A program made the position numbers and the translations under genes. A stretch of DNA of 64,000 bases from Escherichia phage SKA64: the sequence record OM362897.1; one strand, written 5' to 3'. Of the stretch, positions 35,479 through 40,210 are shown piece by piece; the stretch's first letter is position 1; the number at the start of each line of letters is the position of its first letter. The notes beneath the pieces were generated by a model that was not told the origin of the DNA, searched no databases, and saw only the letters and a list, made by a program, of their open reading frames with translations.

Positions 35479-35808
35479 ATGGAAATTACTACAGAACAAG
35501 CCCTTATCGATGAGGGTCGTAAAATCTTAGAAAAGTATTTAGGGGAGATTCATAAAACCCCTGGCTATTTGGGTTGGAGAATTGTTGAAGCTGTAGATTT
35601 CCTTCCTCGTAACAGTAAAAACGTCGAAATGCGATCTCTTTTCTTATTAGTAAAGGTGGATGGGGATACGCCTTTTAAAGATGCCGCAGAACATATTGAA
35701 AAAGTTGAAGAGAAAGCTTATGCAGAATTTGCCGATCTTGTTTTAGAACAAGAGATTGAAGGAAAGGTGAATATTTTTATTTTCTTAGATTTTGAGGAGG
35801 ATAAGTGA
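35479..35808 (+). CDS. hypothetical protein
   Basis: 109-aa ORF with RBS ggaggaagg. Confidence 0.35.
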   Translation: MEITTEQALIDEGRKILEKYLGEIHKTPGYLGWRIVEAVDFLPRNSKNVEMRSLFLLVKVDGDTPFKDAAEHIEKVEEKAYAEFADLVLEQEIEGKVNIFIFLDFEEDK

Positions 35809-36548
35809 TCATACACAGAGAAATTACTGTTAAAAGCGATCAAGATCTTTTTATAATTGGAGATCTACACGGTTGTTATAATTTGTATGAAAAAGGAAAG
35901 GCAAAGTTAGGTATCCGAGATACAGATGTGGTTGTATCTCTAGGAGATCTTACTGACCGTGGAAAGCAAAACTTTCGTTGTGTTTTAGAATTTACTCGTA
36001 AACACAATCGCTACGCTATTCGTGGCAATCATGAAGACATGATGATTAAAGGTATGCTGGAAGGAGATCGTAGCTACTACGAGTGTTGGTATCAAAATGG
36101 AGGATATACGGTCTTTGAAGAATGTGGTGAAGAAGGAGCTACAGCCTTAGCAATGATGACAGAAGATTTACCTGTTGTTCTCATTGTTAACTACAGAGGC
36201 ATGAAACTTGCGTTTATTCATGGTGGGTATCCATCTTCTTTGGAATATCTCCCTGTAACAGATATTCCAGAATACATTTCGAAGATGACAAAAACACAGG
36301 AAAACCGTTTTGCTGAAGCACTTATGTGGGACAGAGATATGGTAGACTGTGCTAAAGAGGGAATGAAACTTCCTGTTGTGATGGGTGTGGATTATGTGTT
36401 TCATGGACACTCTTATGTAAAAACACCTATTATCAATGCGAATCGTGTTTATATGGATACTGGATCTGTGTTCAATAATAACTTAACATTTGCTTATTTC
36501 GATATGGACGGTGGTCTTCAATTTTATTCAACTCTTGAGGAGGATTAA
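35805..36548 (+). CDS. Ser/Thr protein phosphatase (lambda-PPase-like metallophosphoesterase)
   Basis: IIGDLHGC, GDLTDRG, GNHEDM motifs. Confidence 0.75.
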   Translation: MIIHREITVKSDQDLFIIGDLHGCYNLYEKGKAKLGIRDTDVVVSLGDLTDRGKQNFRCVLEFTRKHNRYAIRGNHEDMMIKGMLEGDRSYYECWYQNGGYTVFEECGEEGATALAMMTEDLPVVLIVNYRGMKLAFIHGGYPSSLEYLPVTDIPEYISKMTKTQENRFAEALMWDRDMVDCAKEGMKLPVVMGVDYVFHGHSYVKTPIINANRVYMDTGSVFNNNLTFAYFDMDGGLQFYSTLEED

Positions 36549-36863
36549 TGTATAAGATTACAATTATTCAAAGTGTAGGTAATATCCGTAAAGAAGTTAT
36601 CTTAGAAACAGAAGATGTTAATCTTGTTCGTGAGATTGTTCTTAAGGAAGATAACCTGCAAGCTGTAGAATCAGATGCACCGAATCTTATGGTGGATCAA
36701 GAATATTCTGAACTTCGTCGTATTTTTGAAGAGATTCAGAAGAAAGAAACACAACCGACCATAAAACCTTTTGGTCCTTATGATCCGAGCAATCCTAGCA
36801 GTCCTTGGATCATGAGAAATACGGAACCGTATACACCTTTTGAAATTACTTGTTGAGGTGATT

Positions 36864-37445
36864 ATGGCAGAACTGTTCTATACGGGAGTTGGAAGTAGAG
36901 ACATATCCGAAGAAGAGTGGGCTTTGATGGTAGGCATAGGGAAATGGCTTTCAAACCTTGGGTTTAAATTAAGGTCTGGGAAGGCAGAGGGTAGTGATTC
37001 TGCTTTTGAAACAGGTGTCCAAGAGTCTGAAAATCCTACTAACAAGGAGATTTATGTTCCTTGGGAAAATTTCAAAGGTAATCAGATTCCAGGGGATGTT
37101 ATTGTTCTTGCAAAACCAGATACAATGAACTATGCTATCTCTGTGCAATGGATCAAAGATGTTCACCCAGCCTATGAAAAGCTTAAGCAGGGTGCTAGAA
37201 AATTGCACCAACGTAATGTGCATCAAGTGTTAGGTAGAGATTTGGAGAATCCTGCTCCATCATGTTTCTTGTTGGCTTGTGCTAATACTGATAAACATGG
37301 AGATGCAAAAGGTGGAACAGCTACGGCTTGGAAGATAGCTAAAGCCAATAATGTTCCTTGTTTAAATATTCGTGGGAAAACAAAACAAGAGATTTACGAT
37401 TTTCTACGACCTTTGGTAATGAGGGCAATAACAAGTGATTCCTAG
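36864..37445 (+). CDS. DprA/Smf-like (SLOG-type) Rossmann-fold protein
   Basis: YTGVGSRDIS...LRSGKAEGSDSAFETG. ATG 36864 with RBS gaggtg; the track ORF begins at an upstream TTG. Confidence 0.4.
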   Translation: MAELFYTGVGSRDISEEEWALMVGIGKWLSNLGFKLRSGKAEGSDSAFETGVQESENPTNKEIYVPWENFKGNQIPGDVIVLAKPDTMNYAISVQWIKDVHPAYEKLKQGARKLHQRNVHQVLGRDLENPAPSCFLLACANTDKHGDAKGGTATAWKIAKANNVPCLNIRGKTKQEIYDFLRPLVMRAITSDS

Positions 37446-38199: not shown

Positions 38200-38397
38200 A
38201 TGACGACCAAGTTTAAAACAGTAGAAGAAGCCGTAAAAGCAGCTTATGAGGCTTTAGCGGAAGCAGAACAGTTAGCAGACGAGACTGGTGAAGGTTTCAG
38301 TTTCTCCCCTGAATATGGGATGGGTGGTTATTATGATCCAGAAGATGAAAATGAGAATACTGGAACAAATTGGCATCCATCTTCTTTAAGTTGTTAA
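38200..38397 (+). CDS. hypothetical small acidic protein, C-terminal W-H-x-SS-x-x-C motif
   Basis: Ends ...GTNWHPSSLSC. Confidence 0.35.
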   Translation: MTTKFKTVEEAVKAAYEALAEAEQLADETGEGFSFSPEYGMGGYYDPEDENENTGTNWHPSSLSC

Positions 38398-38635
38398 TAG
38401 GAGGTAAAGTGGGAATCGAAGATATCAAAGGTTATAAACCGCATACCGATGACAAAATTGGTAAAGTGAATGCTATTAAAGATGCTGAAGTTCGATTAGG
38501 ATTAATCTTTGATGCTCTAATGTCTGAATTGTGGGCTGAACTGGATGATTGTGAAGATTTGGAAGAGTCTACCAATATATCCACCCGCCTTGACCAAATT
38601 TCAATAGCAAAGACTAAGTTGAAAGAAGCTTCTAT

Positions 38636-38896
38636 GTGGGCCTGTCGTTCCGTTTTCCAACCAGAGGAGAAATACTAATGAGTTATCGTAATGTTGAAGA
38701 ATTAACTGAAAAAGCCCAAGCTATTATGGCTTTGGTGGACGAACTTACAAAAGAAGCTGAAGATGCTGGTTTTGGTCTTAGTTTAGAAGATGACGCAATC
38801 TGTTTTGAAGATTGGCAATCCTCTTCTTGTTATGGTGAAGGTGATGATGGTTTCGTTGTTAATTCTCAAGGCGTTTGGCACAGTAGTAGCTGTTAA
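38636..38896 (+). CDS. hypothetical small acidic protein, C-terminal GVWHSSSC
   Basis: Ends ...QGVWHSSSC. Paralog-like with the next ORF. Confidence 0.35.
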   Translation: MGLSFRFPTRGEILMSYRNVEELTEKAQAIMALVDELTKEAEDAGFGLSLEDDAICFEDWQSSSCYGEGDDGFVVNSQGVWHSSSC

Positions 38897-38905
38897 GGAG
38901 AGATT

Positions 38906-39178
38906 GTGGAGTCTGAAGGTGAACTGCTGATAAAAAAGAAAGTTAAAGAGATGGAACAAGCACAAAGAAAGTTTCGTAAGGAAATTGAAGAACTTTGTGA
39001 ACAGTTTCAGGAACAAGCTTGGATAGGTGACTACGGTAACGGAGAAACTTATTACCCTACAGGAACGCCAGCCGCAGATCACTATATTGATTTCATTTGT
39101 GAAGATTATGGTGTAGAGTTGGATGAAAATGGTTTAACCACAAGAGGTGTTTGGATCTCTTCTTCCTCAATGTGTTAG
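38906..39178 (+). CDS. hypothetical small acidic protein, C-terminal GVWISSSSMC
   Basis: Ends ...RGVWISSSSMC. Followed by terminator and promoter. Confidence 0.35.
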   Translation: MESEGELLIKKKVKEMEQAQRKFRKEIEELCEQFQEQAWIGDYGNGETYYPTGTPAADHYIDFICEDYGVELDENGLTTRGVWISSSSMC

Positions 39179-39188
39179 TAAATAATAA

Positions 39189-39208
39189 CCCGCTTCGGCG
39201 GGTTTTTT
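39189..39208 (+). terminator. rho-independent terminator
   Basis: CCCGC-TTCG-GCGGG followed by TTTTTT. Confidence 0.6.
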
Positions 39209-39209
39209 A

Positions 39210-39238
39210 TTGACAGGAATCTGGAAGCCTGATAAACT
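39210..39238 (+). promoter_or_regulatory. sigma70-like promoter
   Basis: TTGACA, 17-nt spacer, TAAACT. Confidence 0.45.
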
Positions 39239-39268: not shown

Positions 39269-40210
39269 ATGGTGTTAATTGGTAGCCGTGCATTACAAAT
39301 TCATGCTATGGACATGGGAAAAGACTTGTATCGCCCTTGTGTAGATTTAGATTACCTGTGTACAGAACAAGAGTGGGAAGAATTATCAAAAATGTTCTCT
39401 CAAGACGAGTTTGTTGAACTTGTAGAACGTAAAGGGAGCAAAGGCCATGTCAAAATGATAGCTGGTGCACATTTGGAATACGATATTGCTTCTCAAGGAG
39501 ATAGCACAGAAGCTTTGATTAGTTATTGTGAAGATTCTGATGATGTTCGTCGAACTTACGCTGGACATGTTGTTGCTCCTTTAGATGTGCTCTACCTTCT
39601 TAAAATGAGTCATCGTTTTAAAAAGGATAGTCCTCACTTCTTTAAAACTATGAAAGATATTCATTTCATGCGGTCACTGGGCGCAAAGATCCCAGAAAAT
39701 CTTAAGAGTATTTATGAGTTGCGTGAGAAAGAAACATACACTTACTCTCATCCGAACTTAAACGTAAAAAGTAAAGAGTTCTTTAAAGGTGACGAGGTTC
39801 CGTATGTTTATGATCATGATTCTATCCATGAAGCAATCGCGTTAATGGATGCTCCAGCATATAAATCTTATATGAAAGATGGAAGTGAAGTTATGACCAG
39901 CAAAGAAAAGTTTTTTGCTCAACCAAAACATGTGCGGCTGTTAGGTGTTTATGAAGAAGCGTGTGTTTTGGCTTTGGAACGTTCACAAATTCCTTTCGGT
40001 GAAGAGATCGGAGGTCCAACCCCTAAGCAAAGTTTTATAATGGCTTTATCTAAAGTCTGCACATCCATCACTAGTGGTTGGTTTAGGGAATATGCTTGGG
40101 AAAACTTTTATGTTGTTATTAAGCTATATGAAAACATGGGCGAAAACGACTATGTTGAACGTTTTAAAGCTAATCAACATGTAGTAAAGCCTTTTGAAGG
40201 AGGTTATTAA
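39269..40210 (+). CDS. hypothetical protein
   Basis: 313-aa ORF. Confidence 0.4.
   Translation: MVLIGSRALQIHAMDMGKDLYRPCVDLDYLCTEQEWEELSKMFSQDEFVELVERKGSKGHVKMIAGAHLEYDIASQGDSTEALISYCEDSDDVRRTYAGHVVAPLDVLYLLKMSHRFKKDSPHFFKTMKDIHFMRSLGAKIPENLKSIYELREKETYTYSHPNLNVKSKEFFKGDEVPYVYDHDSIHEAIALMDAPAYKSYMKDGSEVMTSKEKFFAQPKHVRLLGVYEEACVLALERSQIPFGEEIGGPTPKQSFIMALSKVCTSITSGWFREYAWENFYVVIKLYENMGENDYVERFKANQHVVKPFEGGY

Follow-up and report, generated by a model that had tools for sequence, protein, structure and literature searches.

Small acidic phage proteins with a W-x-S-S-x-x-C ending and their linkage to the gene of a predicted MenT-like nucleotidyltransferase

Three genes with a shared ending and the family to which they belong

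Escherichia phage SKA64 (sequence record OM362897.1) is a phAPEC8-like E. coli myophage (Phapecoctavirus), and the stretch of its DNA analysed here, called the window throughout, covers 64,000 nucleotides (nt). Between positions 38200 and 39178 lie three genes for small acidic proteins, here denoted A, B and C, which share a C-terminal tail containing Trp, Ser and Cys. They are followed at 39269-40210 by a partner gene whose 313-amino-acid (aa) product has the predicted fold of a nucleotidyltransferase, and all genes of this region are on the + strand.

Protein A, encoded by the open reading frame (ORF) 38200-38397 (+), has 65 aa, an isoelectric point (pI) of 4.05 and a net charge of -11. Its N-terminal part is a helix, which is followed by an F-S-F strand, a loop and strand with the sequence Y-G-M-G-G-Y-Y, an acidic linker and then the tail; its C-terminus is GTNWHPSSLSC, with the codons for W-H-P-S-S-L-S-C at 38371-38394. 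The ORF of protein B (38678-38896, +; 72 aa, pI 4.05, net charge -13) begins with an ATG at 38678 that overlaps the TAA of the preceding Acb2 gene. B ends in QGVWHSSSC, the terminal W-H-S-S-S-C being encoded at 38876-38893, and it carries a second, internal copy of the motif, W-Q-S-S-S-C (38813-38830), which is followed by Y-G-E-G. Protein C (ORF 38906-39178, +; 90 aa, pI 4.40, net charge -10) has a GTG start with an AAGGAG ribosome-binding site ahead of it, contains a G-D-Y-G-N-G-E-T-Y-Y-P motif and ends in RGVWISSSSMC (W-I-S-S-S-S-M-C codons at 39152-39175). The endings and the acidity that the initial annotation had claimed for these ORFs match the sequence exactly. Its description of the three proteins as neighbours holds in so far as the genes share a strand and lie close together, but they are not contiguous, as the Acb2/Vs.4 gene (38409-38678) separates A from B.

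A six-frame scan of the window for W..S[SN]..C directly before a stop codon returned three sites only, which are A, B and C, and in 200 shuffles of the sequence the same ending occurred 0.2 times on average and twice at most. The tail Ser residues are encoded by TCT TCT in A, by AGT AGT AGC in B and by TCT TCT TCC TCA in C, and a search for a DNA-level repeat among the three tails found none. Since the codons differ (TCN versus AGY) and the DNA is not repeated, selection conserves the tail at the protein level.

All three proteins match phrog_899, a family annotated as of unknown function (E 1.4e-13 for A, 7e-6 for B and 5.1e-14 for C), and in profile searches each recovers relatives of the other two. 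A profile built from A, B, C and their first relatives was searched against 1.84 billion representative proteins and yielded 391 family clusters, counted at 50% identity with E <= 1e-3; nearly all of the matches extend to the final residue of the target. For inspection we took 176 sequences, comprising the homologues of A, B and C together with the best 150 representatives from the profile search. The median length is 89 aa and the median pI 4.4. Absence of the motif from homologues had been set as the finding that would speak for chance; instead, a W/S-S/C tail with Cys as the final residue is kept in 171 of the 176. The form W-x-[S/P/A]-S-S-x-x-C accounts for 165 sequences, a further six are of type B and end in W-x-S-S-S-C or near variants such as W-Y-S-S-N-C, and a few of the remainder have one extra residue beyond the Cys.

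The tail stands out against a very divergent background. In an alignment of 145 sequences, with a mean column identity of 18%, the invariant columns are the Trp, one Ser and the terminal Cys, and the S-S pair as a whole is invariant or nearly so. The spacing between Ser and Cys does vary (S-S-x-x-C versus S-S-C). The family pattern is one of constant ends and a hypervariable middle, with degenerate internal copies of W-x-S-S in many of the acidic linkers. The Y-G-M-G-G-T-Y-Y-P motif is absent from many members encoded next to a partner gene, yet these still keep the tail. One 134-aa member (P0188) looks like a fusion of two tail units, the first ending in ...GWAASSQSC and the second in ...CVWDHSGCAF. 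It may be a genuine fusion or the result of read-through across tandem genes, and it indicates that the motif is tolerated internally.

In AlphaFold2 models of the tail proteins a single helix packs against a small sheet of three strands, with the Trp in the third strand and the S-S-x-x in a short terminal turn. Comparisons with characterised proteins were uninformative: A, B and C gave sub-threshold noise only against Pfam and a best E of 0.5 against PDB sequences, while against PADLOC A and B gave nothing and C a single sub-threshold chance match (ZorB, E 0.022). No match to Acb2 or Tad1 was found for the three proteins, and neither their sequences nor their predicted folds resemble Acb2. 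A search of the longer family members (130-200 aa) for a known extra domain gave none that hints at function. A sub-cutoff NCBIfam match of B to the lanthipeptide SflA was rejected as chance. The suggestion that the tail binds metal does not fare well for the protein acting alone. The terminal Cys is the sole invariant potential ligand, no His is conserved, the three to four conserved Cys or His ligands per chain of a zinc-ribbon or metallothionein-like protein were not found, and 99 of the 171 tail-bearing members have a single Cys. With only one conserved ligand, a single chain is unlikely to bind metal by itself; a site formed between subunits or together with the partner enzyme is conceivable. 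From their sequences, these proteins form a large, phage-specific family of small acidic proteins defined by a W-x-[S/P/A]-S-S-(x-x)-C ending.

The repetition of the tail in the window had been attributed to local gene duplication. Pairwise similarity among the three is marginal (A-C E 0.002, B-C E 0.006, A-B none), and each matches a protein of T4-like phages far better: 52% identity and E 8e-21 for C, 51% and E 7e-19 for B, including the internal motif and Y-G-E-G, and 38% and E 1e-6 for A. Counterparts of C occur in Karam-, Mosig- and Gaprivervirus-type phages (Entb_45, PEi20, VR7 ORF142c), and double-motif counterparts of B are found in the T4-like VR7 (ORF138c) and at the T4-like loci L048 and L051. 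Phage VR7 has five family genes in tandem and Mosigvirus phi25-307 has two or three, and array orders such as C-A-x-x-B recur. Because each protein is closer to its T4-like counterpart than to its neighbours in the window, a recent local duplication is ruled against. The shared ancestry of the three, all of which match phrog_899, stands, but the simple duplication reading has to be corrected: A, B and C are three old and distinct paralogue types that have been maintained separately.

The partner gene and its linkage to the tail genes

The product of the partner gene (39269-40210, +) matches phrog_2141 (E 4e-126) and, above the Pfam cutoffs, both DUF7277 and DUF7275. Its structure model is confident (predicted local distance difference test score, pLDDT, 92), and the closest solved folds are MenT1, MenT3/TglT and MenT4, which belong to the MenT/AbiEii nucleotidyltransferase toxins. 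Residues G5, S6, D26 and D28 (the D-x-D) and E70 are invariant in 57 homologues, which are 51-81% identical to the window protein; even distant forms from Gordonia, Streptomyces and Vibrio phages retain G-S and D-x-D. An invariant G-S, D-x-D and E constitute the catalytic signature of Pol-beta-type nucleotidyltransferases, and the protein thus combines a Pol-beta-type fold nearest to MenT with motifs I and II (G-[GS]...D-x-[DE]) and a further acidic residue. The helical C-terminal two-thirds contain invariant K112, H115, H123, H161, H183-D184, H187, E229-E230 and E237-R238, as well as a K-V-C-T-S-I-T-S-G-W-F-R motif, and no relative of this helical domain could be detected.

Searches of Pfam, NCBIfam, PADLOC and PDB sequences gave no match of the partner to DUF1814/AbiEii, including motifs III and IV, even at lenient E-values, and no other nucleotidyltransferase family profile matched. 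K112-x-S-H-R resembles motif III by eye only. For want of a DUF1814/AbiEii profile match we describe the partner as MenT-like in fold and not as a member of DUF1814; the model indicates a nucleotidyltransferase fold of the MenT/AbiEii kind. RlaP, an RNA-ligase-associated nucleotidyltransferase described for jumbo phages (PMC7824862), was considered and rejected, as there is no Pfam match to it and an RNA ligase gene adjoins the partner gene at only two of the loci examined. One homologue, at 2992-3945 of locus L103 (Acinetobacter phage phi1_092060), is labelled 'DefenseFinder protein'; the label is automatic, PADLOC does not bear it out, and we did not use it.

The partner gene is present in 734 of 50,697 phage genome records (~1.4%), among them T4-like, phAPEC8-like, Acinetobacter, Aeromonas, Pseudomonas and jumbo phages. 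In the window it starts 91 positions beyond the end of C (39178) on the same strand, and a DUF7277/DUF7275 gene also follows the tail arrays of VR7 and phi25-307. The recurrence of this gene behind the VR7 and phi25-307 arrays led to the linkage being tested from both sides.

On the side of the small proteins, a degenerate DNA pattern for Y-G-M-G-G-T-Y-Y-P was run on IMG/VR and found 13 loci, including jumbo-phage contigs of 355-389 kilobases (kb). All 12 loci with DNA further downstream have a homologue of the partner gene (35-51% identity) directly downstream on the same strand. Six out of six look-ups of divergent members, on contigs of 88-311 kb, likewise showed a DUF7275 gene 0.05-1 kb downstream, so that in 18 of 18 cases the gene lies on the same strand 0-1 kb downstream. 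On the side of the enzyme, 80 IMG/VR loci with 41-77% enzyme identity were analysed. In 71 of them one to five tail ORFs lie upstream on the same strand, the opposite strand having none, and another three loci carry a variant tail copy or one located downstream. Clustering the enzymes at 90, 70 and 55% identity leaves 56/60, 28/31 and 12/14 clusters with tail ORFs. A search of 185,579 species genomes gave five enzyme hits, all on phage-like contigs of metagenome-assembled genomes (MAGs) and all with tail ORFs just upstream. An Acinetobacter T4-like phage has the same layout of tail genes and then enzyme, and the gap between array and enzyme gene falls to 7-20 nt in other phages. The remaining flanking genes are wholly different among jumbo, T4-like and phAPEC8-like phages, which argues that the linkage is functional and not inherited synteny. 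The tail genes and the enzyme gene together point to an undescribed two-part phage module, and this module is restricted to large virulent phages.

The linkage is one-sided. At the loci examined, tail genes in no case lack the enzyme gene, and the enzyme gene stands alone in the lineage of L020 and L029 and at the T4-like locus L071, while in the L082/L083 lineage only a degenerate tail ORF is left beside it. The one clearly tail-less lineage, which is phAPEC8-related, comprises L020, L021 and L029 (enzyme at 4001-4927) together with L022, where the enzyme reading frame ends after 55 aa. In L020 and L029 three enzyme residues that are otherwise at least 95% conserved have changed (D182 to Q or E, Y198 to F and W271 to R), and W271 falls within the K-V-C-T-S-I-T-S-G-W-F-R motif.

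No tail protein accompanies a short (~250-aa), distant DUF7277/DUF7275 subfamily found in phages of Gordonia, Streptomyces and Vibrio (Schizotequatrovirus). This subfamily is flanked by another acidic, aromatic-rich protein of ~97 aa that has no Pfam match (L104 3603-3893, L105 3597-3896, L107 2570-2866). These neighbours are alike by eye, which suggests a second kind of small partner. At the other extreme, two loci on 89-311 kb contigs (L096 4010-5757 and L102 3499-4746) have at least five tail genes among seven consecutive small genes directly upstream of the enzyme gene. In both, a gene for an HD_4 (RelA/SpoT-type HD) protein lies ~1.5-2 kb downstream, and in L096 a PrkA gene comes next.

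Surroundings of the array in the window

The gene between A and B (38409-38678, +) encodes an 89-aa homologue of Acb2/T4 Vs.4, a cyclic-nucleotide sponge that acts against the cyclic-oligonucleotide-based antiphage signalling system (CBASS). The assignment comes from profile and PDB matches (Pfam PF24729, E 1.2e-19; PDB 7uq2 'Vs.4', E 1.6e-42 over residues 3-89). The gene has a GTG start behind AGGAGG, and its stop overlaps the start of B. Acb2 was not seen adjoining the module in the other phages examined. Between C and the partner gene, pattern matching alone marks a terminator-like hairpin with a T-run (39187-39204, +), and a consensus scan marks, again as a pattern match only, a sigma-70-like promoter (39210-39238, +) made up of TTGACA, 17 nt and TG-n-TAAACT.

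Further upstream lie genes for a calcineurin-like metallophosphoesterase (35805-36548, +; Pfam E 3e-13) and a DprA-like recombination-mediator protein (36840-37445, +; PHROG 768, E 2e-62). Together with Acb2, these genes show the region to be an accessory one of the early type. The 102-aa ORF that separates the phosphoesterase and DprA-like genes (36548-36856, +) has a C-terminal Cys as well (...TPFEITC), though no W-x-S-S motif. Ten tRNA genes are clustered at 3579-5501 on the - strand, two for Met and one each for Ile, Pro, Gln, Gly, Thr, Asn, Ser and Arg. Over the segment 37400-40300 the sequence shares 99.6% identity with Dompiswa phage TSP7_1 and 98.6% with phAPEC8.

Possible roles of the module and comparison with known systems

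The family with its invariant tail, the old paralogue types, the fold and catalytic-type residues modelled for the partner and the directional linkage were established directly, and from them we infer a physical interaction, a covalent modification and a downstream role for the module. The reading that we tentatively favour is that of an enzyme with its client proteins. The tail would be the conserved element recognised by the product of 39269-40210, and its Ser or Cys would probably accept a nucleotidyl or related phosphoryl-linked group from this nucleotidyltransferase. A single enzyme would serve an array of one to five clients, whose variable acidic middles could be aimed at separate targets in the host during take-over or counter-defence. 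Terminal modification had been raised as a possibility for the tails by the initial annotation; the evidence leans towards this idea, which now has a specific candidate enzyme. The fuller scenario of a phage protein-tagging system, where a MenT-like enzyme nucleotidylates the Ser or Cys of W-x-S-S-x-x-C clients and the nucleotide-bearing products serve as decoys or effectors for take-over or counter-defence, is less likely than not. If true, it would give viruses a post-translational modification pathway not described before, and the MenT/AbiEii fold an activity towards proteins that is new for it.

Several observations favour the client model. The linkage found from both sides counts for it, as does the nucleotidyltransferase fold of the partner with its invariant G-S, D-x-D and E. 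In a family that diverges so widely, nothing is invariant but a Trp and nucleophiles, and invariant nucleophilic residues are typical of acceptor motifs and unusual at inhibitor interfaces. The internal W-x-S-S copies, and the full internal motif of type B, are more readily understood as repeats of an acceptor site than if the tail were one plug at the C-terminus. A series of divergent small genes with one short motif in common leads up to a single enzyme gene, which is the usual layout of an enzyme with multiple substrates, as in clusters for ribosomally synthesised and post-translationally modified peptides (RiPPs). The loss of W271 and of two other conserved residues in the tail-less lineage is a weak hint in the same direction, coming from a single lineage.

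Other observations weigh against the client model. The tail appears to be partly folded and not a free peptide, given the position of the Trp in a strand and of S-S-x-x in a turn. The enzyme has a role independent of the tails, since a few lineages and the distant short subfamily have the enzyme and no tail genes. In the window, the putative terminator and promoter ahead of the enzyme gene make it appear to form a transcription unit separate from that of the tail genes. The closest structural relatives, MenT1, MenT3 and MenT4, act on tRNA 3' ends and not on proteins, and MenT1 is controlled by a 68-aa protein, MenA1, which simply blocks the electropositive cavities of its active site (PMC10435456).

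This precedent is the basis of the most serious alternative, in which the tail proteins are antitoxin-like regulators that bind non-covalently to the electropositive substrate cleft of the enzyme, in the manner of MenA1, and place the tail at the catalytic centre, so switching off the activity or timing it. The true substrate of the enzyme would then be tRNA or another RNA end. MenT1, MenT3 and MenT4 are the best fold matches of the partner, MenA1 is likewise small and encoded upstream of the enzyme whose cavities it blocks (PMC10435456), and small genes ahead of a nucleotidyltransferase gene are in toxin-antitoxin order. A net charge of -10 to -13, as in A, B and C, would suit a nucleic-acid-binding cleft, the enzyme can stand alone while the small proteins were never seen alone, and some phages have RNA ligase, phosphoesterase or tRNA genes near the enzyme gene. 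Antitoxins do not usually keep invariant residues over hundreds of divergent clusters, however, and up to five anciently diverged paralogues per genome would be odd as inhibitors of one enzyme. Internal copies of the motif could not serve as C-terminal plugs, a presence on only five MAG contigs in 185,579 species is not that of a typical toxin-antitoxin pair, and there is no PADLOC or Pfam match to AbiE/DUF1814. On balance such regulation seems unlikely, though far from fanciful. That the small proteins are independent effectors, such as nucleic-acid mimics or decoys directed at host defences, which merely travel with the enzyme gene in a variable accessory region, is improbable. The tail might then be a motif that binds a host protein, a degradation signal or a metal or iron-sulfur (Fe-S) site made between subunits by the terminal Cys residues. 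A and B do flank Acb2, a proven counter-defence gene, and are small and acidic like known mimic proteins; the predicted terminator and promoter divide the array from the enzyme gene in the window, and type B has two Cys-containing motifs. But in phAPEC8-like, T4-like, Acinetobacter, Pseudomonas and jumbo phages alike the linkage persists although every other neighbour has been replaced and enzyme identity drops to 35-50%, Acb2 is adjacent nowhere else among the phages examined, and an inter-subunit site would have to rely on the one Cys that is invariant, neither a His nor a second Cys being conserved.

The constant ends and hypervariable middle, the several paralogue types per genome and the strict linkage would also suit specificity adaptors, whose core and tail dock on the enzyme while the hypervariable acidic segment recruits host targets for nucleotidylation. 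The variable segments are, however, short, low-complexity acidic stretches, the MenT/AbiEii group offers no precedent, and mere docking needs no invariant Ser and Cys, which makes adaptors of this kind distinctly improbable. To RiPP-like precursors, in which the S-S...C tail would be dehydrated and cyclised to a lanthionine or aminovinyl-cysteine (AviCys)-type ring or processed to a small peptide, we give hardly any credence. Ser and a C-terminal Cys are used in such rings, the small genes are in tandem beside one enzyme gene, and B matches a class IV lanthipeptide model very weakly (E 0.05; 13.5 bits, where the cutoff is 25). That match, to SflA, lies outside the tail as well as below the cutoff; no gene for a lanthipeptide synthetase, YcaO, radical-SAM or LanD-like enzyme, or for a protease or exporter, is found among the neighbours; the spacing of Ser and Cys is not fixed; and the proteins are predicted to be folded domains and not leader-core peptides.

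The invariant tail of these fast-diverging proteins and its tie to a nucleotidyltransferase fold make the client model a concrete hypothesis, open to quick testing in genetically tractable E. coli phages. The answer would be useful either way, as it would reveal a new protein modification or a new control of MenT-like enzymes, whose bacterial relatives are abortive-infection toxins.

In the databases both families are named as hypothetical proteins or DUFs only. The entries for PHROG 899, PHROG 2141, DUF7277 and DUF7275 are unannotated and give neither the tail motif nor a fold assignment nor the link between the families, which are described here. A search of the accessible literature found no mention of DUF7275, DUF7277, their Pfam accessions, PHROG 899 or PHROG 2141, and nothing on anti-defence in phAPEC8.

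Two kinds of known system invite comparison. The first is that of Pol-beta-fold enzymes that nucleotidylate proteins and have a small partner encoded close by: in MntA-HepT a HEPN toxin is AMPylated and in GlnD-PII a small protein is uridylylated, the acceptors being Tyr. As in these systems, a nucleotidyltransferase-fold enzyme is here accompanied by a small protein with an invariant hydroxyl-bearing motif, the modification in the present case being hypothesised. The HEPN and PII folds are unrelated to the tail proteins; MntA and GlnD are absent from the structural matches of the partner, and no sequence relation to them was found. The resemblance to MenAT1 and the wider MenT/AbiEii (DUF1814) group is closer. 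The partner has G-[GS]...R-x-x-x-D-x-D, a third acidic residue and a MenT-type fold, and in MenAT1, too, the enzyme gene is preceded on its strand by the gene of a short protein, which acts on the active-site region of the enzyme (PMC10435456). In contrast to MenT1, the partner is ~120 residues larger and has a distinct His-rich helical domain, and it differs from MenT and AbiEii in having no DUF1814/AbiEii sequence match. Where MenAT1 has one small gene, the phage module has one to five divergent ones, and their alpha/beta products with an invariant W-x-S-S-x-x-C end are unrelated to MenA1 and the COG5340 antitoxins. Finally, whereas MenT/AbiEii systems are found in bacterial chromosomes, the module described here belongs to virulent phages.

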